Of a stretch of 64,000 bases of DNA, positions 2,372 to 42,408 are shown in pieces. Position numbers and translations under genes: made by a program. The notes under the pieces are model-generated. The model saw only the letters and a program-made list of their open reading frames with translations, had not been told where the DNA came from and searched no databases. Position 1 is the stretch's first letter; every line of letters starts with the position of its first letter. The DNA lies in assembly GCF_016717175.1 (NCBI RefSeq), contig NZ_JADKFZ010000003.1. One strand, written 5' to 3'. This DNA comes from Nannocystis sp. Lineage in GTDB: Bacteria; Myxococcota_A; Polyangia; Nannocystales; Nannocystaceae.

Positions 2372-3262
2372 ATGACCCGCCGCCTCGCCACGCTCCTCGT
2401 CCTGCCGCTCGCCGGCTGCTTCGTCGATCCCGGTCGCCACGGCAGCGACGGCGCCAGCGCGAGCGGACCCGGGAGCAGCGGCGCTGACGACACCAGCGGG
2501 CCGGTCCTCACCAGCACCGGCGAGCTCGAGACCAGCACCGGCATCACCCCCATCTCGACCTCCGGCGTCGATCCCACGAGCTCGGCGAGCGACCCGTCGG
2601 CGAGTGACCCATCGGCGAGCGACCCGTCGGCGAGCGACCCGACCATGACCGCGACCACGCTCCCGCCCGCGCACTGCGGTGACGGCGTCGTCGACCCCGG
2701 CGAGGGCTGCGACGACGGCAACAACCTCGACGCCGACGCCTGCCTCGCCAATTGCCAGCCAGCCAGCTGCAGCGACGGCGTCCAGAGCCAGAGCGAGAGC
2801 GACGTCGACTGCGGCGGCCCCTGCTCGTCGTGCGGCAGCTGCCACCTGTGCGGCGGCGACGGCGACTGCGAGGGCGGCCTCGTCTGCGACGGGGCCCGCT
2901 GCGTCGCCGCCGCCAAGCTGAGCGTCGACTGGGTCACGCACTGCGGCGTCGACAGCAGCAATTGGTACGTCGGTCCAGCGCTGCCAGCCGGGCCCTACCG
3001 CGTCCTCGCGCTGGGCGGCGGCGGGACCAACTTCGTCCAGGGCTCCAACTACGCGTGGCAGGTCGCCTGCGAGGGCATCGACCTCACCGCCCTGGACTCC
3101 GGCTACGGCCACGCCTCGCCCGACGAGGCCTTCAACGCGCTGCCGGTCAAGCAGATCGTCCGCGACTACGCGGGCGGTCCCCTGCGCTGCGGCATCATCG
3201 ACGACCCCTGCGACGACAACGCCGGGAGCGTCGAATTCACCTTCACCCTCGACTGCCCGTAA
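2372..3262 (+). CDS. lipoprotein with Myxococcus cysteine-rich repeat
   Basis: Lipobox LPLAGC. Four SASDP repeats. CGDGVVDPGEGCDDGNNLDADACLANCQ matches the Myxococcus cysteine-rich repeat signature. Confidence 0.65.
   Translation: MTRRLATLLVLPLAGCFVDPGRHGSDGASASGPGSSGADDTSGPVLTSTGELETSTGITPISTSGVDPTSSASDPSASDPSASDPSASDPTMTATTLPPAHCGDGVVDPGEGCDDGNNLDADACLANCQPASCSDGVQSQSESDVDCGGPCSSCGSCHLCGGDGDCEGGLVCDGARCVAAAKLSVDWVTHCGVDSSNWYVGPALPAGPYRVLALGGGGTNFVQGSNYAWQVACEGIDLTALDSGYGHASPDEAFNALPVKQIVRDYAGGPLRCGIIDDPCDDNAGSVEFTFTLDCP
2586..2640 (+). repeat. 12-bp tandem repeat x4 (encodes SASDP)
   Basis: gcgagcgacccgtcggcgagtgacccatcggcgagcgacccgtcggcgagcgaccc, seen directly in the sequence. Confidence 0.8.
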
Positions 3263-3345
3263 TTGCGAGAAGGCCAGGTCCCGGGTGGGGCCTGGCCTTT
3301 GGAGCCTGGCCTTTGGGGCCTGGCCTTTGGGTCATGTCCTTCGGG

Positions 3346-5610
3346 TCAGCCGCGGGCGCCCGGCCAGGCCGCGGGCGCGGCGACCGGGTCGCGGCGCACG
3401 GGGTTGCGCGGCCGCTCGTAGCGCGAGCAGAACTTGTCCCACAGGCCGAGCACGCGGTTGGCCTCGGGGTCGCTGAGGCCCTGGGCCAGCGCGCTCAGCT
3501 CGCCGCGCCCGGTGTCGCAGGCCTGCCAGCCCTCGGGATCGTCCCACGAGCCCTCGACCATGCCGCGACCGGAGGGCTGCGGGCGCTGGGCGAGCAGCGC
3601 CAGGCGGTCGGCCCAGCCGATCAACAGGCGCCCCTTGCGGACGTTGAACGCGTCCTCCTGCAGCGCCTCCCCGAGCGTGAAGGCCTGCTCCTCGACCATC
3701 TGCGTGCCGGTCTCCGGGTCCTCGTACTCGATCGTCAGCATGATCTGGTCCTGCGGGCGCAGCTTGCCGCCGCGGGCCATCAGGTCGGAGAGGAACAGCT
3801 GCGAGGTGTTGGCGAAGTAGTGGATCGCCTGCACGTCCTCCTTCACCACCGAGCTCTCCTCGCCGTAGAACACGTTCATGCGCAGCGAGGGCGGCAGGTG
3901 CAGCTGGAAGTGCACGTCCATCGCCGTGGTCTCGAGCAGCGAGATGAAACGCGCGCCGAACACCGCGTCGACCTCCGCCTCCGAGCCGAGGAACACGTAG
4001 GCCCCCTTGCCGCGCTCGGTCAGCTTGTCGAGCAGCGCGTCGTTGAACTCGCGGCCGACGCCGACGCCCGACAGGCGGATCTTCCGCGAATCGTAGTACT
4101 TCGAGATCATCGACATCGTCCGCGGGTCGGTGTCGCCGGTGTTGGCCAGCGCGTCGGTCACCAGGACCACGCGGTTGTTGTAGGTCGGCTGGTACGACGA
4201 GTCGGCCAGCGCGTAGCCCTTGCTGAGCCCGAGGTGCACGTCGGTCGAGCCGCGCGGCTTCATCTTGTCGATCGCCTTCTGCAAGATCTCCGGCTTGTCG
4301 CGCCCGACGACGAAGTTCTCGATCGGGGTGCACTCCTCGTGGTCAAACAGCACCACGTTGACCAGGTCCCCGGTCTTGAGCTGCGAGGTCATCTTGGTCA
4401 TGCCGCGCTTCAGGTAGTCCATGCGACCCTCGTCCGACATCGAGCCCGAGCGGTCGACCACGAAGGTGAGGTTGGCGTTGCGCCGCGCCTGCAGATCGAC
4501 CGGCCGGCCCTTGATCGCCAGCGCCAGGTTGTAGATGCCCGCCTGGTTCGGATCCGGGGCGATGTCCGCCAGCACCGAGAAGTCGTCCTGCGGGGCCACC
4601 GGGGCGGTCTGGAACGAGAAGTAGTTGAGCAGCTCGTGCGGCCGGATGTGCTCGACCGGCAGCGGCAAGAACTTCTCGATCGCGAAGATCACCCGCTGCG
4701 CCGACGACAGGCTCATCGTGTCGTCGTTGCTGAGGTAGATCGCTTGACCCCAGTCCTTGTACTGCTCGCGCGGGTCGTCGAGCTGGACCGGCTTCATCTC
4801 CTCGTCCGCGGCGATGTCCATCGGCGCCGAGGCCGAGGCCGGCTCCTGCGCCGCCTCGCCGGCGGACGGGCGGTTACTCGCCTCCCTCGCTTCCTTCTTG
4901 GCCAGACGATCGGCCTTGCGCTCGGCGCTGCGCTCCGACAGCGAGGTCTTGTCCGCCGGCCGCGGGGGCGCCGGGGACGTGGCAACCGGCGCGCTCATCG
5001 GCGAAGACATCCCCGCCGACACCTCGGCGGCGGGCGCTGGCCCCGACGCGCGGCCCTTGCCCGCGCTGTCGCCGTCGCTGGCGTCCTTCCTCGGCGGCGC
5101 CGCCGGCTTGTTCGGCGCTGGCGCCCGGGTCGCGGGGTCCGGAGCGCTGGCGCCGTAGCCCTGACTGGACCCGCCGAGCACGCCGCCGCTGCTGCCGGTC
5201 GGCTGGATCGCCGTCGACCCGCCGGCCGAGCCGTACTGAACCTTCTTGTACTTCCCCTGGTAGCCCGTCGGCGGCTTCGGCTTCGGCGTCGGCTGGCGCG
5301 GCCCGCTGGCGATCGGCTGCGGGTGCTCGCCGCCGTAGCAGCGGTCGATGTGGTTGACGAGCTTGGGCAGCGCGTTCAGGTTCGGCGCGGGCGGATCGAC
5401 GCGCGTGTGCGCCGGGTGCGGCCGCGGTGAGAACAGGTGCGGCGGCGCCTCGTAGGCGCCCTGGCCCTGGACCAGCAGGGCCCCGTTGCCGCCGCCCTGG
5501 CCCGGATCGACGGTGCCGCCGATCGGCGTGACGGTCGAGCCGGTGCGGCAGCCGACGAAGCACAGGGGCAGCGACAGCAGGATCCACTTCGCAATAGACG
5601 GGGCGTTCAT
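3346..5610 (-). CDS. VWA-domain lipoprotein (YfbK-like)
   Basis: Start reassigned to MNAPSIAKWILLSLPLCFVGC (lipobox), with GGAG 8 nt upstream. MIDAS motif DRSGSMSDEGR. Long Pro/Ala-rich low-complexity N-region. C-terminal DUF3520-like tail. Confidence 0.7.
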   Translation of the reverse strand: MNAPSIAKWILLSLPLCFVGCRTGSTVTPIGGTVDPGQGGGNGALLVQGQGAYEAPPHLFSPRPHPAHTRVDPPAPNLNALPKLVNHIDRCYGGEHPQPIASGPRQPTPKPKPPTGYQGKYKKVQYGSAGGSTAIQPTGSSGGVLGGSSQGYGASAPDPATRAPAPNKPAAPPRKDASDGDSAGKGRASGPAPAAEVSAGMSSPMSAPVATSPAPPRPADKTSLSERSAERKADRLAKKEAREASNRPSAGEAAQEPASASAPMDIAADEEMKPVQLDDPREQYKDWGQAIYLSNDDTMSLSSAQRVIFAIEKFLPLPVEHIRPHELLNYFSFQTAPVAPQDDFSVLADIAPDPNQAGIYNLALAIKGRPVDLQARRNANLTFVVDRSGSMSDEGRMDYLKRGMTKMTSQLKTGDLVNVVLFDHEECTPIENFVVGRDKPEILQKAIDKMKPRGSTDVHLGLSKGYALADSSYQPTYNNRVVLVTDALANTGDTDPRTMSMISKYYDSRKIRLSGVGVGREFNDALLDKLTERGKGAYVFLGSEAEVDAVFGARFISLLETTAMDVHFQLHLPPSLRMNVFYGEESSVVKEDVQAIHYFANTSQLFLSDLMARGGKLRPQDQIMLTIEYEDPETGTQMVEEQAFTLGEALQEDAFNVRKGRLLIGWADRLALLAQRPQPSGRGMVEGSWDDPEGWQACDTGRGELSALAQGLSDPEANRVLGLWDKFCSRYERPRNPVRRDPVAAPAAWPGARG

Positions 5611-5940
5611 CGTTGTCTCCTCGAGCCTTCTTTGCAGCAGGGACCGAGCATGGCACAGATCGTCGGCCGTCTCGGCCGCGATCGCCGGGGTCCCCGGGCG
5701 CCCCTGGAACGACGCCCCGAGCCCCGACCTTTCGCCCACCCGAGAAATTTGTCCACGGCCCGCGGAGACCGCCATAAACGGTGTTCTGATGGCCCCGGCG
5801 CTCGCCGGTGCCCGCCGCTCGCGCGCCACCACCTGCGCGCGCCCGCTCGCCTGGCTGTCAGGACATGCTCTCGCGGACACCCACTCGCGCTCGCACGCCC
5901 GCAAAGCACTCGCACAGCACCTGTACTGAAGCCGGTGATG

Positions 5941-5975
5941 GCATGTCCCAAAGGACATGTCCATCGGGACATGCA
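5941..5975. promoter_or_regulatory. triple GGACAT/ATGTCC half-site palindrome cluster in divergent intergenic region
   Basis: gcATGTCCCAAAGGACATGTCCATCGGGACATGc. It lies between the minus-strand VWA gene start (5610) and the plus-strand membrane protein start (~6093). Confidence 0.45.
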
Positions 5976-6092
5976 GCAGCGCATCGGCACGGTGACCGAC
6001 GAGGTCGATCAGGGCCCAGTACTGCGCGCATGTCAAGCCGTGGGGCCCGGCGGTCCGGCGGACCTGGCCCGCGGACTTGGCCCGCGCCGGGC

Positions 6093-7304
6093 GTGGGTGC
6101 GACAATCACGGCGGTGGACTCGCTGCTCCTCGTCGTCGCCGAACTGGTGGCGGTGCCGCGTCTCGTCGCGGCCGTGCTGTTGCTCGCGATCGGCGGCGGC
6201 ACGCTGCTCGTGCTCGGGCAGTGGACCTTCGGGCGGCGCCTGCGGGCCCGCCTGCAGCGCTGGTGGCGGCGTCTGCTGTGGGCCACCGTCGGCGGCCTCG
6301 GTGCGCTCCTGCTCGGGCTCCTGCTGATCGACCTCCTGCTGTTCGCGCCGGCCCTGCGCATCGCCCTCGACCAGGTCGAGCTGCGATCGGGCGTCGACGT
6401 CAGCTTCCAGCGCGCGCGCGGCAGCCTGTTCACCGGACGCCTCGAGCTCGAGGACGTGAGCGTGCGCCGCAGCGGCCGCGGCCTCGACTTCTCGCTCACG
6501 GTCCGCGAGCTCGTCGTCGACGTCGACATGCTCGGCCTCCTCCGCGACGAGCTGCCGATCGCCGAGCTGCGGGTGGCCGGGGTGCGCGGCTCGCTGGTAC
6601 GGCGGGAGGAGGGCGCCCCGGGTCCGGCGCGGCGCTTTGCGATCGCCAGCCTCGACCTCCGCGACGTCCAGCTCGACTTCGAGGACACGATCACCGCGCC
6701 GTTCCGCAATCTCCCGCTCGAGTTCGAGGTGCTGCAGATAAGCCCCCTGCGCAGCGACTACGCCATGCTCGACGTGGTGTGCGGCAGCGAGGCCCGCGGC
6801 AGCGCCCGCGGCCACCGCTTCAGCGCCGGCGGCCACGCCTGGCAGGCCCGCGGGATCCCGGTCGGCCCCGCCGCGCACAAGCTCGGCGCCGCCGGGCGCT
6901 GGATCCGGGGTGGTGACCTCGACGTGACCCTGCGCTGCGCCGGCGACCGCGACGCCGCCGAGCTCTCCCTCGCCGTCGACCTCCGCCTGCACAACTTCAA
7001 GATCGCCCCGCCCGGCGACAGCGATCGCAGCCTGCCCGTCAGCCGAATCACCGATGCCCTCACCCGCCTGGGCCCCGAGATCCAGTTTCACTTCAGCTTC
7101 TCGCTCCCGCGCGAGCGCTTTCACGGCGCCAGCAACGTCGGCAGCCTCGGCCTGTGGGAGGGCGCGATCCAGGCCTGGAACCTCGAGCTCGGGACTCGCC
7201 TCGGCCTCGGCGGCGACGACCTGCGCATGCTCGGCGTCGGCTCGCGCGTGCTGGACCGATTGCGACAGGACGGTCGACCCGCGCCCGATCGGCGGCGTGA
7301 TTGA
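6093..7304 (+). CDS. membrane protein of unknown function
   Basis: Two strongly hydrophobic helices near the N-terminus (LLLVVAELVAVPRLVAAVLLLAIGGG and LWATVGGLGALLLGLLLIDLLLF), followed by a soluble domain. The start (GTG 6093) is uncertain. Confidence 0.5.
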   Translation: MGATITAVDSLLLVVAELVAVPRLVAAVLLLAIGGGTLLVLGQWTFGRRLRARLQRWWRRLLWATVGGLGALLLGLLLIDLLLFAPALRIALDQVELRSGVDVSFQRARGSLFTGRLELEDVSVRRSGRGLDFSLTVRELVVDVDMLGLLRDELPIAELRVAGVRGSLVRREEGAPGPARRFAIASLDLRDVQLDFEDTITAPFRNLPLEFEVLQISPLRSDYAMLDVVCGSEARGSARGHRFSAGGHAWQARGIPVGPAAHKLGAAGRWIRGGDLDVTLRCAGDRDAAELSLAVDLRLHNFKIAPPGDSDRSLPVSRITDALTRLGPEIQFHFSFSLPRERFHGASNVGSLGLWEGAIQAWNLELGTRLGLGGDDLRMLGVGSRVLDRLRQDGRPAPDRRRD

Positions 7305-8201: not shown

Positions 8202-10001
<1,800 letters not shown>

Positions 10002-10012
10002 GCTGCACCCAA

Positions 10013-10049
10013 GGACATGTTCCAAGGGGCATGTCCCAAGGACCATGCC
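10013..10049. repeat. GGACATGTYCC-type hairpin repeat pair immediately downstream of the kinase stop
   Basis: aaGGACATGTTCCaaggGGCATGTCCCaaGGACCATGCC. Confidence 0.45.
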
Positions 10050-10247
10050 TCGCGCGCAGGCGCGCTCACGGCCGCGGCGGAGCACGCGCTCGCGCGCTGG
10101 CACAATCGCCGCACCGCGGGCCATTGCGCGCCGGGCCTACCTCCACGCCTGTGACAGCACACGCTCCCCCCGCAGATCCCTGCTAGCGAGGCGGCCGCGA
10201 CTCGGTTCTACTGGGGGCCGTTCCTGCGAACGAGTGCGAGGTTGGTC

Positions 10248-12371
10248 ATGACAACGAGAATCTATCTGCTCCTCACGGGTGCGTGTGTGCTCGCCACGGC
10301 GTGCAGCGACGACGGTCGCGCCGAATCCAACAGCAACACCGATGGCGGCAGCGGCAGCGTCAGCGCCAGCGCGACCGATGCCGACACCGAACCGGTGCCG
10401 ACCACCAACCCGACGACCGCGACCGACCCGAGCGGCGGCACGCCGGGCACCGCGAGCCAGACCAGCGAGGCGACCGAGGCCACCACCGTCGACCCGAGCG
10501 CGGGCACGGTGATGACCAGCGCCGACACGACCACCGGCGACGACCCGATCGTCGAGGTCGTGATCGATCCGCTCGACGCGATCGTCACCGTCATCGACGG
10601 CCAGATCCCCGCGCCGCTGCAGTACACCGCCAAGGGCATCACCCAGAACAACGTCGAGATCCCGCTCGACGGCACCTGGACCTACGACCGCCTCGACCTC
10701 GCCAGCCTCGGCGGCCAGTCCGGCTCCTTCACCGCGACGGGCTTCGCTGGCGGCAAGGGCACCGTCAGCTTCGACCCCGCCGGCGACCTCCTCCCGGTCC
10801 AGACCTCCGCCACCGTCAAGCTGCAGTACACCAGCGAGCCCGACCCCGTCGACCCCGGCATCAAGGACGGCTTCGGCATGGCCGTCGAGCCCGACCCGGC
10901 GATGGTCCTGCTCTACCCCTACGACAAGACCGTGTTCCCTCGCGGCCTCACCGGCCCGACCGTGCAGTGGAACGGCGGCGCCGCCGACGACCTCTACTAC
11001 ATCCACGTCTACAGCGACTTCTTCGAGTTCAAGGGCTACACCAAGGTCCCGCCGCCCTCGCGCTACAACTTCCCGAAGCTGCCCGCGGACGTGTGGCTCA
11101 AGCTCACCGCCTCGACCGAGGGCCCGGTGACCTTCGACATCCAGCGCTTCGACGGCAACAAGGCCTACCTCGCCAAGACCCAGACCTGGACGATCGCCCC
11201 CGCCAACCTCACCGGCGCCGTCTACTACTGGGAGGTCAACAACGGCAACGTCGTCCGCCTCAAGATCGGCGACCCCGCCCCGCAGCAGTTCATCAACAAG
11301 CCGCCGGGCGTCGCCTGCGTCGCCTGCCACAGCGTCTCGAAGGACGGCTCGCGCATCGCCGCCGCCTTCCACGGCGGCTACAGCCCGTGGAACGTGATCG
11401 AGGCCGCGACCGGCAACGTGCTCTACTTCCCGAACATCGCCTCCGGTTTCCAGGCCATCTCGCCCAACGGCTCGCACGTGCTGTGGGGCCAGTCCGACGA
11501 GACCGGCTCGCTCAAGCTGACGACCTTCGACAACGCCGCCGTGCTCACCACCCTGACCACCCCCGGCGGCAAGCCGGTCCACCCGGCCTGGGCCGGCGAT
11601 CCCAGCCGCGTCGCCTTCGCGCGCAAGACCGACGGCAACTGGCTCGACTTCAACAACAGCGAGCTGTGGACCGCCAACGTCGATCTCATGACCAACAGCT
11701 TCTCGAACGTGAAGCAGATCGTCGACAAGGCCCCGCCGCTCGGCACCACCACCTTCCCGACCTTCGCCCCCGACTCCGAGTGGATCGCGTTCAGCCGCCT
11801 CAACCAGGCCCGCACCCGCGGCGCCGTCACCGAGGTCTGGGTCACCAACTTCGACGGCAGCGCCCAGATGCGCCTCGACAAGGCCAACGGCCTCGGCATC
11901 ATCGAGCCCGGTCAGGACCAGACCACCTACGAGCCCACCTTCCTCCCGGTCTCGGTCGGCGGCTACTTCTGGCTCATCATCGGCAGCGAGCGCAAGTACG
12001 GCAACACCCTCACCGACACCAACCCCGGCAGCCGTCGCAAGCAGCTGTGGGTCTCGGCGATCGACGCCAACATCCAGCCCGGCCAGGACCCGAGCCACCC
12101 GCCGTTCTGGCTGCCCGGTCAGGAGCTCAACAACTCCAACATGCGCGGCGAGTGGGCGCTCGCCCCGTGCAAGCAGATCGGCGAGGGCTGCAACGCCGGC
12201 TTCGACTGCTGCGGCGGCTTCTGCTACCCGCCCGCCGAGGGCGAGGAGCCGACCTGCAACGACATGCCCGACAGCTGCTCGCACATGGGCGACGCCTGTG
12301 AGGTCGACGCGGCCTGCTGCGAGGGCGAGGGCAGCTGCATCGGCGGCTTCTGCTCGATCATGCCCGGCTGA
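10248..12371 (+). CDS. lipoprotein with beta-propeller-like region, CxxCH motif and C-terminal Cys-rich knot
   Basis: Lipobox LATAC. GAGGT sits 7 nt upstream of the ATG at 10248. GVACVACHSV is a CxxCH motif. FAPDSEWIAFSR and similar TolB/PD40-like strands are present. The C-terminus CKQIGEGCNAGFDCCGGFC... is Cys-rich. Confidence 0.6.
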   Translation: MTTRIYLLLTGACVLATACSDDGRAESNSNTDGGSGSVSASATDADTEPVPTTNPTTATDPSGGTPGTASQTSEATEATTVDPSAGTVMTSADTTTGDDPIVEVVIDPLDAIVTVIDGQIPAPLQYTAKGITQNNVEIPLDGTWTYDRLDLASLGGQSGSFTATGFAGGKGTVSFDPAGDLLPVQTSATVKLQYTSEPDPVDPGIKDGFGMAVEPDPAMVLLYPYDKTVFPRGLTGPTVQWNGGAADDLYYIHVYSDFFEFKGYTKVPPPSRYNFPKLPADVWLKLTASTEGPVTFDIQRFDGNKAYLAKTQTWTIAPANLTGAVYYWEVNNGNVVRLKIGDPAPQQFINKPPGVACVACHSVSKDGSRIAAAFHGGYSPWNVIEAATGNVLYFPNIASGFQAISPNGSHVLWGQSDETGSLKLTTFDNAAVLTTLTTPGGKPVHPAWAGDPSRVAFARKTDGNWLDFNNSELWTANVDLMTNSFSNVKQIVDKAPPLGTTTFPTFAPDSEWIAFSRLNQARTRGAVTEVWVTNFDGSAQMRLDKANGLGIIEPGQDQTTYEPTFLPVSVGGYFWLIIGSERKYGNTLTDTNPGSRRKQLWVSAIDANIQPGQDPSHPPFWLPGQELNNSNMRGEWALAPCKQIGEGCNAGFDCCGGFCYPPAEGEEPTCNDMPDSCSHMGDACEVDAACCEGEGSCIGGFCSIMPG

Positions 12372-20622: not shown

Positions 20623-21501
20623 TCAGCGGTAGAAGTGCAGCCGGATCGGCGGGGAGACGGCGCGGATCGGGCGGCCCTCGGGGTCCTTCGCCGGGGTGAA
20701 GCGCGTGCGGCGAGCGCAGCGGATCGCGGCGGCGGCGAAGCCGTCGCCCGGGTCCTGCACGACCGTGCTGGACTCGACGCTGCCGTCGGCGCGCACGGTG
20801 ACGCGGATCGTCGCGGTCTGCTCGTCGATCGGGAGCTCGCTCGCCTCGTCGGGCCAGGGACAGTTCCACTCGTCGGTCGGCAGCGACACCGGGGCGGCTC
20901 GGCTCGGCTTGTTCGGCGTCGGTGGCGGTGTCGGTGACTCGGCGGGCGGCGGGGCGCCGACCTGCTTCGTGGGCGTCGTGCCGGTGCCGCCGGGGCTGGT
21001 GGCTCCGCCGGCGTAGGCGCTGCCCTGGCCCTCGACGAAGACCTCGCCGGTGAGGTCGAGCGGGGCGCCAGGGGCCGACACGATCTTGCCGGCGCGGGCC
21101 GGGGCGGCGCCGACTTTGAGCCGCACGCGCGGCGCGGGCTCGCTGGGCGGCGGCGTCGCGGAGGGCGTGGTGTCGGGCGCCAGGGCCGGTGGAGCGGCGA
21201 CGGGTGATGGCTCCGGGGGCTTCGGCGGGGCGAGCTCGACGATCTCGACGCGCGTGAGCTCGTCGTGGATCCGCGAGGCCAGGTCGGCGCTCCAGGCCTC
21301 GAGGCTCGGCTGCATGCCGACGATCCACACGCCGAGGGCCAGGTGCGCGAGCCCGGCGATCAGCGCGGCCGGCAGGCGTCGACGCGGCGCGGCGCGGCCC
21401 GGGGCGAACACGAGGTCGACGATGCGCGGGCTGTCCGTGGGGACAGGTGCACCTGGCGCGGAGGACAGGTCCGCGGGGACAGGTGCCTCGCGCTCGCTCA
21501 C
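20623..21501 (-). CDS. tonB: TonB energy transducer
   Basis: N-terminal TM helix, Pro-rich spacer, and a C-terminal TonB domain. Confidence 0.75.
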   Translation of the reverse strand: MSEREAPVPADLSSAPGAPVPTDSPRIVDLVFAPGRAAPRRRLPAALIAGLAHLALGVWIVGMQPSLEAWSADLASRIHDELTRVEIVELAPPKPPEPSPVAAPPALAPDTTPSATPPPSEPAPRVRLKVGAAPARAGKIVSAPGAPLDLTGEVFVEGQGSAYAGGATSPGGTGTTPTKQVGAPPPAESPTPPPTPNKPSRAAPVSLPTDEWNCPWPDEASELPIDEQTATIRVTVRADGSVESSTVVQDPGDGFAAAAIRCARRTRFTPAKDPEGRPIRAVSPPIRLHFYR

Positions 21502-24361: not shown

Positions 24362-24427
24362 TTTGAACCCGCCGGGCTTGCTGTCTCTCGGGCCAGGCTG
24401 GGATCGTTCGCGCATATCGGACCTGGT
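24320..24427. repeat. 54-bp in-frame tandem duplication at 5' end of lipoprotein gene
   Basis: gggcttgctgtctctcgggccaggctgggatcg... appears twice and duplicates RSQPGPRDSKP. Confidence 0.8.
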
Positions 24428-27168
24428 CAAAAGGACAGGGTGAGGGTACCGAGGACGCTGAGCGGCGGACCGGCGGCGAAGTGGCGCGCGGGCAGGCGCG
24501 AGGGCACGGGGGTCGTGCCCCAGTCGGACACGAAGGAGTAGACGCTGGCGGCGTAGCGGCGCGCGAGCAGGTTGTAGGCCTCGACGCCGAGCTCGATCCA
24601 CGACCAACGCAGCGACGCGGAGGCGTCGAGCAGGTACAGGGGATCGGAGCTCTGGCCGTACGGGAGCGGGCGCGCGGACAGGTAGTTGAAGCCGCCGCCG
24701 AGGCGCATGGCGAGCGGGTGAGCGCCGAGCTGCACGAGGTCCTTGCTGACGCCGAGGTCGAGGCGCACGACCACCGGCGGCACGTAGGGCAGCAGCTGGC
24801 CCGCGACGTAGGCGGGGTTCGGGTCCTCGACCGTGGCCGGCGGCGGGGCGGTGAGGATCGCGTGCACGTAGGTGACCGAGGTGGAGACTTGCAGCCACGG
24901 CCACGGGCGGGTCTGCAGGGCGGCGACCACGCCGCTGCGACGGGTCGGGCCGATCTTCTCGAGGCGGCCCTCCTCGGGGTCGAAGGCGAGGTCCTGGGCG
25001 AGGAAGGTGCCGTAGCCGGCGGCCGTGAGCTCGACGGGTCGGCGCCAGCGCGGGGCCAGGCGCACGCCGCCCTCGACGCTGTGCACCTTGGTGAAGGGGG
25101 CCCGCTCGCCCTCCTCGAGCTGACGCGCCTGCGGTGAGCGGTAGCCCTGGCCGTAGGCGACGAAGGTCTTGAGCCACGGCAGCGGCGTGACCTCGAGGGC
25201 GACGCGCGGGCCCGCGGCGACGCCGGTGGCGGTGCGGCGGTAGCCGACCAGGTGCGAGGCGACCTGGTAGGGGGCGATGAAGTTGCCGAGGTGATCGTCG
25301 ATGTCGTAGTGCAGGACGTCGGCGCGGGCGCCCCCGCGCAATTGCACGTACTTGCCGAATCGCAGCTCGAGGTCGGCGAAGAGGCCGACGTCGGTGGCGA
25401 GGATCTCGGCGTCGACGCGGTGGTCCCAGGTCTCGTTGCTGGGGGCTTGCAGCAGGTTCTGGCCCTGCCGGACGCGGTGGATGCGGGCGCTGCTGCCGAG
25501 CTCGAGGGTGGCCGCGAACCACCGCGCGGGCCGCCACCAGCCTGTCCGATGGGACAGGCGAAAACCGCCGCCGAGGTCGCGGTTCTGCTGCTCGATCAGG
25601 TCGCCGCGGCCGACCCAGGCGGGCATGACCATGCTGCGCTGCAGGTAGCCGGTGAAGTTCTCGCGGCTGTGGAAATCGACCAGCGCCGCGTGGGCGGCGA
25701 ACAGGGTGCGGCCGCCGGTCTCGCTGCGGTGCGTGAGCTCGAGCCCGAGTTGGCCGCGCGCGGCCGAGGCCGACTGGGCGCCGGCGCCGGGGTCGGGGTA
25801 GCGGTCGTAGAAGCCGACGCGGCCGGCCTCGACGTCGTCGTTGCGCAGCACGCCGGCCATGCCGGCGCGGGCGGCGTGGGCGGCGACCATCAGCTTGCCC
25901 GCCAGGCCGCCGGGGCCGGTGAAGGCGAACTGGCCGAGGCCGGTGCCGGACAGGGCGCCGCGGTTCATGCCGAAGCCGCTGCTGCGGCGGATCGCGGCGG
26001 CGGCGAAGGTCTCCTCGGACTGGCCGCGCGGGGCCCACATGGCGAGCTGGCGAAAGGTCCCGAAGGAGCCGCCGGTCGAGCGCAGGAGGAAGCCGCGCTG
26101 GGCCACGCCGAGGTCGAAGTCGATGCTCCCGGCGACCGCGAAGTCGCCCTGGTGCGGGTCGTACACGCCCTCGGTGACGCGGATCGATCGCACGACCTCC
26201 GGCAGGATGAAGTTGAGGTCGGCGTAGCCCTGGCCGTGCAGGTGCGAGATCTGGTTGATCGGTGCGCCGCCGACGGTGAACTCGATGTCCTGGCCGTGGG
26301 CCGCGTTGAAGCCGCGGAGGTAGATCTCGTGCGCGACCGCGTCGCCCTCGGGCCGCGAGACGTACACGCCGGGCGCCCGCGTGAGCATGTCGCCGCTGCT
26401 CTGCTTCGGCGCGGCGTTCAGGACCTCGGGGCCGAGCACGAAGTCGCTGGCGGCCCGCGGCGGCGGCGGGCGCCGGCCGTGGGTGGAGACCTCGATCACG
26501 CCCTCGTCGCCCGGGGACGGGGCCGAGCCGGCTGAAGGGACAGGTTGCGTGGAGCTGTCTGAAGGGACAGGTGCGACGGGGGCCGGCGCGCTGGCCGTGG
26601 GGACAGGTGCGGATGTGCTGGCTGAAGGGACAGGTTGCGTGGGGCTGTCTGAAGGGGCAGGTGCGACGGGGGCCGGCGAGCTGGCCGCGGGGACAGGTGC
26701 GGATGGGCTGGCTGAAGGGACAGGTCGGGTGGGAGCTGGCGAGCTGGCCGCGGGGACAGGTGACGCGGGGATGTCTGAAGGGACAGGTGCGGGAGGAGCC
26801 GGCTCGGCGAGCGGCGGCGGGAACACGAAGGGGACGCGGATCCGGGCCGCGACGGGGGCGCCGCCCTGGGTCGCGGGGGTGAAGCGCCACTGGCGGACCG
26901 CGGCGATCGCCGCGGCGTCGAAGGCCGGGCCGGCGCTGCTGGCCACGGTGACCTCGCCGACGTCGCCGTCGACGCCGACGGTGACCAGCAGCTCGACGCG
27001 CTGCGGGCTGCTGCTGGCCGCGGCGAGCGGGTAGGCGGCCTCCACTTGCTGCACCGGGCGCGGCGCCTGCACGGCCGGGGCAGCGGCGGCGCTGCGGGCC
27101 GTGAGGGCGGCGAGGAGCAGGGCGGCGCCGCAGCGGACGCGGCGCGCCGGTGTCAGGGCCGGGGGCAT
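24427..27168 (-). CDS. TonB-dependent receptor with N-terminal TonB_C-like domain and Pro-rich repeats
   Basis: After the signal peptide comes a TonB-C-like domain. Next are 30-aa Pro-rich repeats (PAPVPSD...), then a plug region, then a long beta-barrel ending in a terminal F. Confidence 0.8.
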   Translation of the reverse strand: MPPALTPARRVRCGAALLLAALTARSAAAAPAVQAPRPVQQVEAAYPLAAASSSPQRVELLVTVGVDGDVGEVTVASSAGPAFDAAAIAAVRQWRFTPATQGGAPVAARIRVPFVFPPPLAEPAPPAPVPSDIPASPVPAASSPAPTRPVPSASPSAPVPAASSPAPVAPAPSDSPTQPVPSASTSAPVPTASAPAPVAPVPSDSSTQPVPSAGSAPSPGDEGVIEVSTHGRRPPPPRAASDFVLGPEVLNAAPKQSSGDMLTRAPGVYVSRPEGDAVAHEIYLRGFNAAHGQDIEFTVGGAPINQISHLHGQGYADLNFILPEVVRSIRVTEGVYDPHQGDFAVAGSIDFDLGVAQRGFLLRSTGGSFGTFRQLAMWAPRGQSEETFAAAAIRRSSGFGMNRGALSGTGLGQFAFTGPGGLAGKLMVAAHAARAGMAGVLRNDDVEAGRVGFYDRYPDPGAGAQSASAARGQLGLELTHRSETGGRTLFAAHAALVDFHSRENFTGYLQRSMVMPAWVGRGDLIEQQNRDLGGGFRLSHRTGWWRPARWFAATLELGSSARIHRVRQGQNLLQAPSNETWDHRVDAEILATDVGLFADLELRFGKYVQLRGGARADVLHYDIDDHLGNFIAPYQVASHLVGYRRTATGVAAGPRVALEVTPLPWLKTFVAYGQGYRSPQARQLEEGERAPFTKVHSVEGGVRLAPRWRRPVELTAAGYGTFLAQDLAFDPEEGRLEKIGPTRRSGVVAALQTRPWPWLQVSTSVTYVHAILTAPPPATVEDPNPAYVAGQLLPYVPPVVVRLDLGVSKDLVQLGAHPLAMRLGGGFNYLSARPLPYGQSSDPLYLLDASASLRWSWIELGVEAYNLLARRYAASVYSFVSDWGTTPVPSRLPARHFAAGPPLSVLGTLTLSF
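26531..26800. repeat. 90-bp tandem repeat x3 (coding, Pro-rich linker of TBDR)
   Basis: gctgaagggacaggttgcgtgg... recurs at 26531, 26621 and 26711. Confidence 0.8.
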
Positions 27169-32028: not shown

Positions 32029-33894
32029 GTGCTGCGCGCGGGTCACAGGGGCGAGGCGCATGGCGCGGACGATCCGGATGTGCGCGGGCGCCGGAGCTCG
32101 CTGCGGCGCGCGCTGGCGCTGGTGGGCGTCGGGGTCGCGGCGAAGCTGGTGCTCGTCCTGCTGCGCGCGGCCGATGGGGAGGCGGCCGGGCTGCTCGGTC
32201 CCTGGGCGCCGCCGACCCTGCTGTACCAGGAGCTGTGGCCGGTGATCGGGCTCTACGGGCTCGATCGCGCGCTGCTGTCTCTCGGGACCTGGCTCAAGCG
32301 ACCTGTCCTTGCGGACAGGCTGTGTTGGGGCCTGTACGCGCTGCTGGCGGTGTACACGGCGATCAACGTGCCGATCGCCCGGCAATTCTCGACGCCGCTG
32401 ACCTACGCCTTCATCGAGGCGGCCGGGGGGGCGCTGCGCGACTCGATCACGGCGTACGCGACGGCGAGCAACGTGGCGGCGCTGCTCGGGCTGCTGGCGC
32501 TGGTGCTGGTGGCTCCGCGGATCGTGCGGGCGCCGCGACGGCCCGTGGCGGCGGTCGTGGTCGGGGTGCTGGTGCTGGTGTTGGGGCCGATCGGGGCGCG
32601 GCGCAGCGAGACTCTCGGGCTGCATCGCGGGGCGGTGGCGACGTTGCTCCGGACCTCCTGGGCGCGCCTGGGGCCGCGTTCGGCGGCGCCCCGGGACGGC
32701 GCGGCGGCGGCCATCGAGCTGCCGCCCGAGGGGCCGGGGCTCGAGCTCTCGCACCTGTCAGGTGCGGCCCGCGGCTACCACGTGATCTGGGTGATCCTCG
32801 AGTCGACCGGGGCGCGGCACCTGCCAGCCTACGGCGCGGCGATCGACGCGATGCCGCGGCTCGGCGAGCTGGCGCGCACGGGCCTGGTGTTCGAGCGCAT
32901 GTACACGAGCTATCCGGAGAGCATCAAGAGCCTGCTGCCGATCCTTTGCGGGGCCGCTCCGGCGCCGTACAGCGCGGCGAGTGACTACGCGGCCGGGCTT
33001 GCGCCTTGCGCCGCGCTGCCGGCGACGCTGGCGGCGGCGGGCTATCGCACCGGGCTGTTTCACTCGGGGCGCTTCATGTATCTCGGGATGCAGGCGATGG
33101 TGGAGGGGCGGGGCTTCGACGTGCTGGCCGACGCGGCGGAGATCGGCGGACCGTATGCGGCGAGCTTCGGCACCGACGATCGCTCGACCGCGCGGCGGGT
33201 GCTTGGGTTCATCGACGAGCGCGGCGAGCGGCCGGTGTTTGCGCTGTACATGCCGATCGCGGGGCACCACCCGTACCGCTCGCCGGGCGCGGGGACGCGG
33301 CCGTTCCCGGCGCACACGGAGGCGGAGCACCATCGCAATGACCTGCACGTCGGCGACGAGGCGCTCGGCGAATTGATCGACGGGGTGCGCGCGCGCGGGC
33401 TGATGGATCGGACGCTGTGGATCGTGATGGGCGACCACGGCGAGGCGTTCCACGAGCACCCGGGGAACTTCGCCCACTCGCTGTTCGTGTACGAGGAGAA
33501 CGTGCACATCCCGGTGATCATCGTGGTGCCGGGGGCGCTGCGGCAGGCGTTGCGGGTGCCGCAGGTCGGCGGGACGATCGACCTGGCGCCGACGCTGCAG
33601 GACCTGCTCGGCCTGCCGCAGACCGGCGTCGGGCGATCGCTGCTGCGCGGCGAGCCGGGGGTGGCCCGCTTCTTCACCGATCACAGCACGCTGCTGCTCG
33701 GGCTGCGGCAAGATCGCTGGAAGTGCATCGTCGAGCCGGAGGCCGGGCGCACGCGGCTGTTCGACCTCGAGGCGGATCCTGGCGAGACGGTCGACCTCGC
33801 GGGACAGGAGCCGGCCCGCAGCGAACGCTACCGCGAGGCGCTGATGGCCTGGTCGGCGCAGCAGTCGGCGCGGCTCGGCACCCACCTGCGTTGA
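32029..33894 (+). CDS. LTA synthase/sulfatase-family (alkaline phosphatase superfamily) membrane transferase
   Basis: N-terminal multi-TM region, then a sulfatase-like domain (HVIWVILESTGARH, MGDHGEAFHEHPG). The start is uncertain. Confidence 0.7.
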   Translation: MLRAGHRGEAHGADDPDVRGRRSSLRRALALVGVGVAAKLVLVLLRAADGEAAGLLGPWAPPTLLYQELWPVIGLYGLDRALLSLGTWLKRPVLADRLCWGLYALLAVYTAINVPIARQFSTPLTYAFIEAAGGALRDSITAYATASNVAALLGLLALVLVAPRIVRAPRRPVAAVVVGVLVLVLGPIGARRSETLGLHRGAVATLLRTSWARLGPRSAAPRDGAAAAIELPPEGPGLELSHLSGAARGYHVIWVILESTGARHLPAYGAAIDAMPRLGELARTGLVFERMYTSYPESIKSLLPILCGAAPAPYSAASDYAAGLAPCAALPATLAAAGYRTGLFHSGRFMYLGMQAMVEGRGFDVLADAAEIGGPYAASFGTDDRSTARRVLGFIDERGERPVFALYMPIAGHHPYRSPGAGTRPFPAHTEAEHHRNDLHVGDEALGELIDGVRARGLMDRTLWIVMGDHGEAFHEHPGNFAHSLFVYEENVHIPVIIVVPGALRQALRVPQVGGTIDLAPTLQDLLGLPQTGVGRSLLRGEPGVARFFTDHSTLLLGLRQDRWKCIVEPEAGRTRLFDLEADPGETVDLAGQEPARSERYREALMAWSAQQSARLGTHLR

Positions 33895-35706: not shown

Positions 35707-36969
35707 TCAGATCGCTGGTGTCGAGGTGCCGCGCGGGTGCACGAGGTTCAGGCGCTTGAGCAGCGGCCAGGAGACGACGACGCCGGGGCCGCGGCGGCGC
35801 CACAGCCAGTCGTGGACCAGGCGCGGCGGGCCGGCGGCGCTGTAGACCGCGGCCCGGTCGCCGACCAGGGCGAGCGGGACGATCACGAGGTCGTGGGTCT
35901 GCGGCGCGCGCGGGTCCCAGATCGCGTGCACGAGCTCGACCTCGGGGTGGCCGGCGGCGGCCAGGTGGGCGCGGGCGCGGGCGAGGTGGCCGGCGTCGGC
36001 GTCGACGATCGTGACGCGGGCGGCTGGCCACACGCGGGCCAGGGCGAGGGCGGTGCGCGGGAACAGGCCGCCGCCGATGACGGCGATTCGGACGGGCCTT
36101 CGGGACAGGTCGGATGGGACATGTCCTGAGGGACATGTCGCGGGATCGTGCGACAGGTCGGAGGGGACATGTCCCGGGAGACAGGTGGCGAGCTCGGGCA
36201 TCAGCCGCGCGAGGGCGCGGGCGTGGCTGGCGACCAGGCGGGCTTGCAGGCGCGGGCTGCGGAGGGCGAGGCGCTCGAGGCCGCCGAGGCCGCGGGCGAG
36301 GGCGCTGGCGAGGGCGAGGTGCAGGCCGCGGAGCACCGGGGGCCAGGGGCTGCGCGGGGCGTCGGCGAGGCGGCGGGCGGGGAGGGCGGTCCAGTGGGCG
36401 CCGGGCCAGCGGTGGTGCTCGGCGTGGAGGCCGTCGTTGAGCCACAGGAGGTTGTAGAGGCGGCCGTCGTGGGAGACGCCGCCGCGAGCGGCGAAGGGGT
36501 GCTCGCCCAGGCCCTGGAGCTGGCACAGGCCGAGGCCGAGGAGGAAGCCGGGGAGGTAGACGAGGAGCAGGAAGCGGGGGGCGAGGACGGCGAGGGCGAG
36601 CCAGAGGTGGGCGACGGCGGCGAGCTCGAGGCTGCCCTGGAGGCCGAGGCGGAGCGGGCCGGGGGCCTCGCCGCGGTGGTGGGCGAGGTGGCGGGCGCGC
36701 CAGATCGTCTGCGGCACGCCGGTGAGCAGGGACAGGGCCAGCGAGAACAGACGGTTGGGCAGCCGCGCCCGGAACACCGGGGTGTGCAGGTGGATGTGCG
36801 CGGCGGTGTTGGAGACCCACCAGACGACCAGGCCGATCGCACAGGTCGCAAGGGACATGCCCCAGAGGCCATGTCCCGAGAGCCAGACGGTGAGCGGGGC
36901 GAGCAGGGCCAGGAGGGCCGGGAGCGCGACGACCCAGGCGTCGCGCGGGCTGTGGCGCCAGCGCGGCAC
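35707..36969 (-). CDS. fatty-acid desaturase/hydroxylase-like His-box membrane domain fused to a Rossmann-like C-terminal domain
   Basis: His boxes HIHLH, HLAHH and HAEHH. The C-terminal RIAVIGGGLF Rossmann motif is joined via a repeat-encoded linker, CLPGHVPSDLS x2. Confidence 0.55.
   Translation of the reverse strand: MPRWRHSPRDAWVVALPALLALLAPLTVWLSGHGLWGMSLATCAIGLVVWWVSNTAAHIHLHTPVFRARLPNRLFSLALSLLTGVPQTIWRARHLAHHRGEAPGPLRLGLQGSLELAAVAHLWLALAVLAPRFLLLVYLPGFLLGLGLCQLQGLGEHPFAARGGVSHDGRLYNLLWLNDGLHAEHHRWPGAHWTALPARRLADAPRSPWPPVLRGLHLALASALARGLGGLERLALRSPRLQARLVASHARALARLMPELATCLPGHVPSDLSHDPATCPSGHVPSDLSRRPVRIAVIGGGLFPRTALALARVWPAARVTIVDADAGHLARARAHLAAAGHPEVELVHAIWDPRAPQTHDLVIVPLALVGDRAAVYSAAGPPRLVHDWLWRRRGPGVVVSWPLLKRLNLVHPRGTSTPAI
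36101..36190. repeat. tandem ~14-bp GGGACA(T/G)GTC units (42-48-bp duplication) embedded in-frame in coding sequence
   Basis: GGGACAGGTCggatGGGACATGTCCtgaGGGACATGTCgcgg...GGGGACATGTCCCgg. Confidence 0.7.
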
Positions 36970-36972
36970 GGG

Positions 36973-37869
36973 CTAGGCGCGGCGGCGGCGGAGGCCGAGG
37001 ACGCCGAGGAGGGCGAGCGCGGCGAGGCCGGGGCGGGCCGGGGCGGCGCTGTCACAGGCGCAGCCGCCCTTGTCGTCCGCGCCGCTGGGTCGGTCGGTGG
37101 CGGTGGCGGTGGTGTTGTTGCCGCCGCTGGTCGAGGCGGGGCCGCCCTCGGTGGGGGCCGAGGTGGTGGTGGCGGTGTCGCTGCCGGTGCCGCCGCCGGT
37201 GCCGCCGGTGCCCGGGTCGGTGGTGGCCGGGGTGCCGCTGGTGGAGCCGGGCTCGCCGCTGGTGGAGCCGGGGGCGGTGCTGGTCTCGGGGGGCGCGGTG
37301 GTGGTCTCCGGAGTGCCGGTGGAGCCGAGCTCACCGGTGGAGCCGGGGTCGCCGGTGCCCGAGGTGGTGCCCGGCGGCGGATCGTCGGGCGGCGGGTTCT
37401 CGACCTGCCAGGCCTTGATCGCGGCGCAGGGGGAGAAGCCCTGGACCACGCCGAGCGCGATCGGGTAGGCGTCGGGCTTCTGCTCGGGGTCCATCGCGGG
37501 GCGCACCGTGCCGTTGTTGAGCTGGCTGTTGTCACCCCAGCCGCGGCAAATGTCGTCGCTGCCGACGGCCTTCTGCAGCTCGGTCCATTGCATGAGGCAC
37601 ATCGGCTGCTCCTTGGGCATCGCGCAGTTGTAGAGCATGTAGCCGTACTGCGGGACCGAGTAGCCGGGGTAGTCGGGGAAGTCGGGCTTCTGGTTGGCGA
37701 CCATGAACACGCCGTCGATGCGGACGACCGGGACCTTCATGTTGGGATCGAAGGTGACCTTGTCGAGGCGGCCCCACACGCCGGCGGGGGAGCTGGCGTG
37801 GGCGACGGAGGCGAGGCCGAGGGTGGTGAGGACAGCGGCAAGGAGGGGGACACGGCGCAGGTAAGTCAT
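36973..37869 (-). CDS. secreted protein with MYXO-CTERM sorting domain
   Basis: Signal peptide, Thr/Gly/Ser-rich linker, and C-terminal GGCACDSAAPARPGLAALALLGVLGLRRRRA. Confidence 0.7.
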   Translation of the reverse strand: MTYLRRVPLLAAVLTTLGLASVAHASSPAGVWGRLDKVTFDPNMKVPVVRIDGVFMVANQKPDFPDYPGYSVPQYGYMLYNCAMPKEQPMCLMQWTELQKAVGSDDICRGWGDNSQLNNGTVRPAMDPEQKPDAYPIALGVVQGFSPCAAIKAWQVENPPPDDPPPGTTSGTGDPGSTGELGSTGTPETTTAPPETSTAPGSTSGEPGSTSGTPATTDPGTGGTGGGTGSDTATTTSAPTEGGPASTSGGNNTTATATDRPSGADDKGGCACDSAAPARPGLAALALLGVLGLRRRRA

Positions 37870-38067
37870 GGACAGCTCCAATGCGGCGAAGGGAGGGCCG
37901 GCAGCCGACCGTATCACAGCGGCGCGGACCGCGACCGTCGGCGTCGATCGGGCGTCTCTAGCCCTGTGGCAAGGCGCTGGCCTGAGCGTCGCGGAGAACG
38001 CGCTGCGGGCTGTGGCTAGCTGTGGCTAGCCCCCGGCGGCGCCGCTTGTGATAAGGAGGCGAACCCC

Positions 38068-40386: not shown

Positions 40387-40467
40387 CTCGGCGGCGAGGC
40401 GGCGAGCGAAGCGAGCCTGGCCCGAAGGCCAGGCTCGCTGGTTGGCTGTCCCGGGGGACAGGTGAGC

Positions 40468-42210: not shown

Positions 42211-42408
42211 GGCAGATCCTCCGAAGATTGGCGCCGCATACGGCGGCGAGGCCGTTACGATCGTTCACCGGCGGCCGCGTTGACAAGCCGCGGCATAGTG
42301 TTCCGTGACGGGCGAAGCTCGGCGGGCGCGCGAGAATGGCGATCACATGGCCCAAAGGACAGTCGCCGCTTGTCGCCGCGTGGGGCGGTCGTGCGCGCTC
42401 GCGGACTC

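Follow-up and report, generated by a model that had tools for sequence, protein, structure and literature searches.

A dispersed family of 14-bp-phased miniature hairpin repeats in Nannocystis

Short inverted repeats built on TGTCC-N4-GGACA are scattered through a 64,000-nucleotide stretch of Nannocystis sp. DNA (contig NZ_JADKFZ010000003.1; the whole stretch is hereafter the window). The host belongs to the Nannocystaceae within the Myxococcota, and the window, with a GC content of ~72%, carries a myxobacterial gene content that includes many Ser/Thr kinases, PSD/DUF15xx proteins, TonB systems and lipoproteins. Here we describe the build, location and variation of these repeats, which probably represent dispersed, Nannocystis-specific miniature hairpin elements behaving like the repetitive extragenic palindromes (REPs) and REPINs of other bacteria.

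A module of fixed geometry occurs far above expectation

An initial annotation of the window had listed eight sites of related inverted repeats. All eight are present, at coordinates accurate to within 1-2 nt, and their minimal common denominator is TGTCC-N4-GGACA, two 5-nt arms enclosing a loop of 4 nt of any sequence. The inverted repeat is thus as first described, but the loop range of 3-5 nt then given is too wide: across 106 related loci (described below), the count of TGTCC-Nk-GGACA is 300 for k = 4 and 28 for k = 18 (4 + 14), and does not exceed three for any other k between 0 and 24. A 12-mer said to recur exactly at three places, TCCCAAAGGACA, has perfect copies at 5946 and 42542 alone; the third, at 42350 (GCCCAAAGGACA), carries one mismatch and is part of the degenerate two-unit array at 42343-42366.

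The window holds eight exact modules (at 5944, 5958, 21432, 25543, 32304, 36122, 40447 and 42540), compared with 0.06 expected from shuffled sequence (a comparison that the annotation had proposed on a genome-wide scale) and 0.05 expected from the window's own 5-mer counts (47 x 67 / 64,000). The 10-mer GGACATGTCC occurs 13 times with at most one mismatch, against 2.35 expected, and among loose matches a spacing of 14 bp is seen six times while other spacings almost never recur. The excess over chance is real and not an artefact.

Modules abut without gaps, and the junction of two modules (GGACA/TGTCC) is itself the 10-bp palindrome GGACATGTCC, with a 14-bp period, so that an array amounts to a 10-bp palindrome recurring every 14 bp. 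This phasing of 10-bp palindromic units had gone unnoticed in the initial annotation, as had three members of the family, an array at 3288-3353 and hairpins at 21432 and 25541.

To place the repeats in a wider context, we scanned 185,579 species genomes, one per species, with the two-unit pattern GGACATGTCCNNNNGGACATG, which returned at least 120 loci. The 106 of these that derive from Nannocystis species or a Nannocystaceae metagenome-assembled genome (MAG) were combined with the window into an 898-kb sample, ~1% of the genomes concerned, in which individual loci compared with the window are named L010, L124, L141 and so on. The sample contains 308 exact modules, and a simple array detector found 204 arrays in it and none in the same sequence reversed. 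The step between units was 14 bp in 346 of 353 cases, and arrays consisted of two (130), three (30), four (23), five (14), six (6) or nine (1) units. Perfect copies of GGACATGTCC number 201, with fewer than one expected, and apparent singletons nearly all have degenerate phased neighbours.

The units conform to the logo R-GGACATGTCC-Y, in which the central C-A-T-G is conserved at 92-98%, and fall into two subtypes at the first pair beyond the core, CATGTCC...GGACATG and CCTGTCC...GGACAGG. Beyond the unit, the bases show a slight R...Y preference and no tetranucleotide is conserved. AT is enriched at the four spacer positions, which are otherwise near-random, with 125 different tetramers represented. 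Neighbouring spacers within the arrays of the sample showed no complementarity, and identical neighbouring or flanking tetramers were only slightly in excess (2.3% compared with 0.9% under the null). Longer palindromes formed through complementary spacers, and pure 14-bp slippage or target duplication leaving identical spacers, were both rejected as being at or near null.

Members of the family in the window

The members identified in the window are as follows.

3288-3353, Array E: degenerate, 14-bp period, GGGCCTGGCC tttg GAGCCTGGCC tttg GGGCCTGGCC tttg GGTCATGTCC ttcg GGTCAGCCGC; convergent gap between genes 2372-3262 (plus strand) and 3346-5610 (minus strand); recognised from tandem-repeat (TRF) rows and the match to GGTCATGTCC
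5939-5976, Array A: three 14-bp-phased units, TGGCATGTCC caaa GGACATGTCC atcg GGACATGCAG, with two exact TGTCC-N4-GGACA modules at 5944 and 5958; divergent gap between a VWA lipoprotein gene (3346-5610, minus strand) and a DUF748-like gene (6114-7304, plus strand)
10013-10050, Array B: three units, GGACATGTTC caag GGGCATGTCC caag GACCATGCCT; starts 12 nt past the stop of a Ser/Thr kinase gene (8235-10001, plus strand), upstream of gene 10287-12371 (plus strand)
21432-21486: exact module TGTCCgtggGGACA and two degenerate units, GGACAGGTCC gcgg GGACAGGTGC; 5' end of a TonB-like gene (minus strand), within a longer open reading frame (ORF; 20623-21501) and upstream of the start chosen by the gene caller (21411)
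25541-25558: lone hairpin of the C-G subtype, CCTGTCC gatg GGACAGG; inside a TonB-dependent receptor gene (minus strand)
32302-32319: lone hairpin of the C-G subtype, CCTGTCC ttgc GGACAGG; inside a sulfatase-family gene (32080-33894, plus strand), in the frame ..PVLAD..
36103-36188, minus strand, Array C: units at 36103, 36117, 36131, 36151, 36165 and 36179, forming two 48-bp copies of a three-unit block
36839-36876, minus strand, Array D: two good units, GGACATGCCC caga GGCCATGTCC, and one weak unit
40446-40461: lone hairpin, CTGTCC cggg GGACAG; convergent gap 40386-40468
42343-42366: degenerate two-unit relic, TCACATGGCC caaa GGACAGTCGC, with 3 and 4 mismatches; 43 nt past the stop of a kinase-TPR gene (42409-45552, minus strand)
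42540-42553: lone module, TGTCC caaa GGACA; within the coding sequence of that kinase-TPR gene, in its 3' part

As first proposed, copies lie between genes (Array A), just past a stop codon (Array B) and in frame within coding sequence (Arrays C and D, in an ORF confirmed by its homologues as a single real protein). Array B, Array E and the hairpin at 40446 occupy settings typical of the family, the divergent gap of Array A being less common. The identical TTTG spacers of Array E indicate recent 14-bp duplications. Whether the units at 21432-21486 are coding or 5' non-coding depends on the choice of start, and the relic at 42343-42366 is a presumed member of the family.

A scan of Array A for promoter and terminator consensus sequences found no terminator and no overlapping sigma-70-like promoter. 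Nearby, a box at 6020-6039 (TACTGCGCGCATGTCAAGCC), ~95 nt upstream of the DUF748-like gene, is kept in the orthologous gaps of L141, L142 and L144, where the surrounding DNA has diverged; it is probably a promoter or operator of that gene, outside the repeat family. The hairpin at 40446 has as its neighbour an unrelated perfect GC hairpin with a 13-bp stem (40405-40440, GCGAGCCTGGCC cgaa GGCCAGGCTCGC) and no U-tract, and the 76-nt stretch 40395-40470 that contains both folds at -42 kcal/mol.

The family is restricted to Nannocystis and present in high copy

Among the matches listed, the Nannocystis sources were N. exedens, N. pusilla, N. punicea, N. bainbridge, N. radixulma, strain RBIL2 and MAGs. 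The remaining 14 listed loci, together with 14 viral contigs, mostly contained a single module each, in sequences of unrelated GC content, with 2-3 modules in two of the 14 non-Nannocystis genome loci and in one viral contig. These are isolated chance-level matches, and on the same grounds a phage link was rejected. A literature search found no description of REP-like repeats in Nannocystis or myxobacteria, so that the family is apparently undescribed; GGACATGTCC appears there only as a p53 half-site, which we regard as coincidence.

Counting only non-seed modules (hits to the scan pattern being left out), the density is ~1 per 4.7 kb in the related loci and 1 per 8 kb in the window. By extrapolation from these modules, we estimate ~1,500-2,500 modules per 12-13-Mb genome.

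Arrays concentrate behind stop codons and between convergent genes

The annotation had further suggested a check for positional bias. We assigned the arrays to genes with our own codon-log-odds caller, trained on long ORFs, which makes the coding and intergenic fractions approximate. In 75% (141/189) of the classifiable arrays the location was intergenic, although intergenic DNA makes up only 16.5% of the sequence. The intergenic arrays comprised 73 in convergent, 60 in tandem and 8 in divergent gaps, compared with length shares of 18%, 58% and 24% for these gap types. The median distance to a facing stop was 24.5 nt, as opposed to 197 nt to a facing start, and within tandem (co-directional) gaps 49 arrays lay closer to the stop and 11 closer to the start. 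Called genes contained 25% of the arrays and 44% of the non-seed single modules; intact CATG-type modules were found 41 times in intergenic and 4 times in coding sequence, whereas about half of the degenerate types were coding.

No U-tract follows the arrays: their tails contain 2.16 T per 12 nt compared with 1.75 in the background, with at least five T in 7% and TTTT in 2% of tails. Several arrays adjoin separate conventional GC hairpins (L058, L081 and, in the window, 40405-40440). On the promoter side, a two-unit array directly upstream of an Hsp70-like gene's -35-like TTGACA is conserved in three species (L010, 4065-4088; L034, 5196-5219; L071, 3445-3468), with different spacers in each; a further array follows the stop of this gene.

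Units stay constant while spacers drift and copy number changes

In orthologous arrays of different species, unit positions were 88.6% identical compared with 54% for spacers. Across 14 non-redundant pairs, identity was 97.5% in the CATG core, 82-87% at the outer unit bases and 48% in the spacers, with 80% in aligned non-coding and 91.5% in coding flanks, the flank values being biased upward by the selection of pairs with alignable flanks. The number of units differs between orthologues by 14- or 28-bp duplications, as in L010 (a 28-bp duplication) and L081 (identical CTTC spacers).

Presence also varies. Array A is kept in L141 and L142, where the neighbouring protein is 93% and 84% identical, and is missing in L143 and L144 (66% and 61%). 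Array B follows the stop of the orthologous kinase gene in L143 and L144 (66% and 61%), where the rest of the gap cannot be aligned, and is missing in L142 (84%); other gaps carry an array in one species and none in another. Higher-order tandem duplications of 36-123 bp enclose arrays at several loci of other Nannocystis genomes (L104, 4940-5240; L095, 2266-2510; L048, 7711-7860; L092, 2040-2140; L080, 3667-3790), which suggests that arrays promote local duplication.

Translated copies form a variable protein linker

The ORF at 35707-36969 (minus strand) encodes two domains, a fatty-acid desaturase and a Rossmann-like domain, and is 100% identical to a protein annotated as 'fatty acid desaturase [Nannocystis sp.]'. 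Full-length homologues occur in Myxococcales and Gemmataceae, and from this sequence comparison we take the ORF to be a genuine protein. Array C, the RNA of which folds at -40.9 kcal/mol (z = -5.1), is translated on the minus strand as ATCLPGHVPSDLSHDP-ATCPSGHVPSDLSRRP (ATCLPGHVPSDLS...) in the linker between the desaturase and Rossmann-like domains. The linker segment is missing in N. exedens, in strain ILAH1 and in all distant homologues; it is present as a single copy in many Nannocystis-like homologues (three units in L124), as two 48-bp copies in the window, and as ~5 copies in a 95%-identical metagenomic homologue (~5 in L125). The series of 0, 1, 2 and ~5 copies indicates that a block of three units (42 bp, 14 codons) was inserted into a tolerant linker and then expanded. 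Array D, in the 5' part of this coding sequence, encodes ..GHGLWGMS..., a peptide conserved in Nannocystis orthologues, at a place where two distant homologues show a 13-residue gap.

More generally, modules within called genes are read in the frame V-P/L-x-D in 52 cases, L/M-S-x-x-T in 25 and C-P-x-G in 7, the Cys-Pro frame thus being avoided; filtering at the level of translation would produce such a bias. In-frame copies require rare T-ending codons (CAT or CCT before GTC) in a genome with a GC content at third codon positions (GC3) of ~93%.

Other low-complexity inserts (VHPGVHPGLGVHSGLGVRSGL, RLAAVSLPRPRLAAAV and others) occur in different loops of the desaturase fusion in some relatives (homologues P0016 and P0013/P0014/P0017). 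Next to the desaturase fusion ORF lies a 303-aa gene (36973-37881, minus strand) that has no Pfam match and is in the same frame, with a single stop between the two; a GTG start follows that stop (36970-36975), at 36969, and the two genes may be translationally coupled.

Two further regions of the window also bear repeats. At 26530-26803, a 90/63/27-bp tandem repeat rich in GGGACAGGTGC lies within the Pro-rich linker of a gene fusing TonB_C to a TonB-dependent receptor (24427-27168, minus strand); it shares the GGACAGG half-arm with the hairpins and may be a relative or source of the family. At 58117-61310 (minus strand) lie three tandem paralogous genes (~58225-59049, 59195-60187 and 60471-61310) for which no Pfam match was found; they share 300-nt blocks of 92-95% identity, and one of them has a 108-bp internal tandem repeat at 60062-60269.

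Pairing potential and the search for a trans-acting factor

Folding of the arrays as RNA, another check that had been proposed, gave stable hairpins, with z-scores of -3.2 to -5.1 (Array A, -24.7/-25.6 kcal/mol, z = -3.3/-3.5); Array B was weaker (z = -1.5). Between adjacent units, compensatory double changes were in modest excess (56 compared with 39.3 +/- 5.6), and at the first outer pair, where A-T alternates with C-G, 105 Watson-Crick pairs were found compared with 82.6 +/- 6.5. Compensation within a unit, as for a cruciform centred on CATG, was absent (23 compared with 25). The G/C pair of the CATG core is near-invariant and without compensatory variants, and at arm position 3 the two members of the A/T pair change independently of each other. 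The combination of fixed bases, constant loop length and free loop sequence suggests recognition by a sequence-specific factor, which could read either a hairpin (in single-stranded DNA or RNA) or duplex DNA.

Candidates for such a factor were sought in several ways. A pattern search for HUH and YxxxNP motifs gave no matches in the 898 kb, Pfam scans of the window ORFs found no RAYT or HUH transposase, and no transposase was found in the sampled Nannocystis loci. Flank complementarity, looked for around arrays as a sign of MITE-type ends, was at null level. An Rfam search of the window at the gathering threshold returned no structured RNA family.

Discussion

We favour the view that the modules are REP/REPIN-like hairpin repeats dispersed within Nannocystis, and consider it probable. 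New copies would arise at new places, including in frame inside genes. Local duplications of 14, 28 or 48 bp account for the growth and shrinkage of arrays. Copies persist where harm is small: past the stops of genes, most of all in convergent gaps, and in protein linkers that tolerate them. Through speciation the arms, and C-A-T-G in particular, remain constant while loops drift freely. The reader would act on the hairpin in single-stranded DNA or RNA, or on a 5-4-5 inverted repeat in duplex DNA, and by analogy would most likely be a RAYT-like enzyme or binding protein serving spread or maintenance. In transcripts, the copies would form stable 3' hairpins on either strand that may protect mRNA ends or attenuate convergent read-through. 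The mode of spread, the reader with its substrate, and a possible role at mRNA 3' ends or in DNA topology are inferred.

Several results weigh against this view. Simple copy-and-paste would not be expected to give near-random spacers unless the copies are mostly old, and the retention of arrays at orthologous sites could reflect a host function rather than selfish spread. Covariation is weak, none being enriched inside the 5-bp core or at outer pairs 3-5, so that pairing itself is weakly supported. A tblastn search of the 898 kb with E. coli RayT returned only a spurious match opposite a real gene, and the twelve genes found between flanking modules were ordinary ones with no trans-acting candidate. 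Neither a conserved flanking tetranucleotide nor a target duplication was found around arrays, which leaves the insertion mechanism to inference. Finally, the coding and intergenic fractions come from our own gene calls and are approximate, and the orthologous pairs are few (14) and chosen for aligning flanks.

The initial annotation had likened the distribution of the repeats to that of REP/MITE-like elements. Their behaviour is indeed REP-like, since they are high-copy, genus-specific, biased toward extragenic and 3'-end positions, hairpin-capable, and different in presence and copy number among relatives; membership in a REP/REPIN-RAYT system is not established, and the MITE features looked for were not seen. 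With the REP/REPIN-RAYT systems of Pseudomonas and Enterobacteria, the Nannocystis family shares short, lineage-specific palindromes in hundreds to thousands of copies (the arrays mostly extragenic, the non-seed single modules less clearly so, with 44% in called genes), which can form hairpins in single-stranded DNA or mRNA, occur as singlets, doublets and clusters, and persist over speciation. REPINs combine conserved arms with a spacer whose length, rather than sequence, matters (PMC3116915), and REPs and REPINs are mobilised by RAYT transposases (PMC3116915, PMC3337134). The Nannocystis units differ in being 14 nt long (a 5-7-bp stem) rather than ~20-40 nt as in REPs or ~70-110 nt as in REPINs, in being perfect self-overlapping palindromes in 14-bp phase, and in lacking the flanking GTAG/GTGG tetranucleotide; moreover, at least a quarter of the copies are coding, and the sampled ~1% of the genomes contained no RAYT.

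Other known elements resemble the family in part. The BIMEs of E. coli and SMAG-type REP arrays of Stenotrophomonas likewise form tandem palindromic clusters of fixed spacing behind genes; such arrays bind gyrase, IHF and Pol I and affect mRNA. BIMEs have conserved linkers and REPs alternating in orientation, whereas the Nannocystis arrays have near-random 4-nt spacers and a unit without orientation. Rickettsia palindromic elements (RPEs) insert in frame into unrelated protein genes and are translated as extra segments at tolerated positions (PMC10969869), much as in the desaturase linker and in keeping with the 52 : 25 : 7 frame bias. Compared by description (PMC10969869), RPEs are ~100-150 bp and mostly genic, while the Nannocystis units, at 14 bp, are about ten times shorter than the ~150 bp quoted there, come in multiples that expand as tandem arrays, and are mostly extragenic. 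MITEs (miniature inverted-repeat transposable elements), such as Correia/NEMIS, ERIC, BOX and RUP, are also small, non-autonomous-looking, dispersed and structured, and can sit in 3' untranslated regions and be co-transcribed. They consist of terminal inverted repeats around an internal region with target duplications; the Nannocystis element is about tenfold smaller, is the inverted repeat itself, and has neither, nor did a related insertion sequence (IS) turn up in the sampled loci. CRISPR arrays resemble the family formally, with constant palindromic repeats alternating with variable spacers of fixed length, but the repeat here is 10 bp, the spacer 4 bp, arrays have 2-9 units, an estimated thousand or more loci exist per genome, and there is no cas context; CRISPR and tmRNA/tRNA ideas were dismissed on anatomy alone. 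In sum, several defining features of REP-RAYT systems, MITEs, intrinsic terminators and operator regulons were looked for and are not seen, and membership in any of these is not established.

A bolder proposal, which we put forward tentatively and with considerable doubt, is that the family is not a small REP but represents a bacterial repeat class of its own. Its self-overlapping 14-bp hairpin module would be both propagated and kept constant by a Nannocystis-specific, non-RAYT factor. With rigid phasing and hypervariable tetraloops, in a repeat-spacer architecture, the module would regularly seed peptide linkers of the GHVPxDMSxGTCP type in proteins of the largest bacterial genomes. The whole would constitute a domesticated system, for genome structuring or for 3' ends, served by separate machinery.

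A rather unlikely explanation is that the arrays are duplex sites (5-4-5, often every 14 bp) for an abundant dimeric protein, either a nucleoid or topology factor or a global regulator, and are created and kept by selection for binding, the hairpins being irrelevant. The fixed spacing of half-sites fits this explanation, as do the invariant bases without compensatory variants, the independent variation of the A/T pair at arm position 3, the AT-enriched but otherwise free spacers, the retention of arrays at orthologous sites while flanks decay, and the conserved array upstream of the Hsp70-like gene. Gyrase or IHF act on BIMEs, and supercoiling stress accumulates between convergent genes, which would place the favoured gaps of the Nannocystis arrays where such stress builds. 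It does not, however, account for the multi-unit in-frame linker inserts and their copy-number variation, nor for the compensatory changes found in excess between neighbouring units and at pair L5-R6; just 8/141 intergenic arrays lie in divergent, promoter-bearing gaps, and the protein is purely hypothetical, with no candidate. A classical transcription-factor operator, which the annotation had offered as its alternative, shares the fixed 5-4-5 geometry but not the promoter location (a start 197 nt away compared with a stop at 24.5 nt), and is unlikely given the scarcity of divergent arrays, the position of most modules behind stops and the in-frame inserts in genes. Recognition by a sequence-specific, possibly dimeric, protein is nonetheless plausible; the invariant bases and the lack of compensatory change in the core point to it.

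We consider it quite unlikely that the arrays are host-selected RNA 3'-end elements, that is, bidirectional terminators or stem-loops stabilising mRNA, which arose where they now stand and share their sequence through recognition by an RNA-binding factor or RNase. Arrays do lie ~25 nt past stops and are enriched between convergent genes, where a palindromic design serves both strands, and they have stable folds with conserved stems and free loops; GC-rich stem-loops just past stops and between convergent genes are also what intrinsic terminators look like. Unlike these, the arrays have no U-tract (at least five T in 7% of tails), one shared stem sequence and a strict tetraloop, often stand beside separate canonical GC hairpins, and include coding and promoter-side copies. 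Selection for RNA structure would, in addition, tolerate other loop lengths and compensatory stems, neither of which is seen.

Enrichment through favour in natural transformation, as with DNA uptake sequences (DUS/USS), is very improbable. The modules are short, genus-specific, tolerated at coding positions and present in very high copy number, and inverted DUS/USS pairs behind genes are a known pattern. However, isolated half-sites or units are not enriched, only the N4 arrangement and 14-bp multiples being so; the density of ~1 module per 5-8 kb is far below the ~1 per kb of DUS/USS; and Nannocystis is not known to be competent. Several of the window's copies fall within coding sequence and Pro-rich repeats, but chance or a by-product of codon usage and peptide repeats in a 72% GC genome deserves next to no credence, given eight modules where 0.06 (shuffles) or 0.05 (5-mer counts) are expected, the emptiness of other spacings and of reversed sequence, the intergenic location of most arrays, and the rare T-ending codons that in-frame copies demand.

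Nannocystis genomes are among the largest known in bacteria (11-13 Mb), and a set of 1,500-2,500 phased mini-hairpins, as estimated here, would rank as a major feature that their annotation lacks. As REP-like repeats, they offer a clean natural case of how very short palindromes spread and stay constant without an obvious transposase, in which mutation and selection can be told apart by comparing the free loops with the fixed arms next to them. The family also shows repeat DNA being turned into protein linkers. In practical terms, the arrays mark the 3' ends of genes, and ORFs that read through them can mislead gene callers; they would serve as markers for strain typing, and would present hazards for assembly and PCR in a genus that is mined for natural products.

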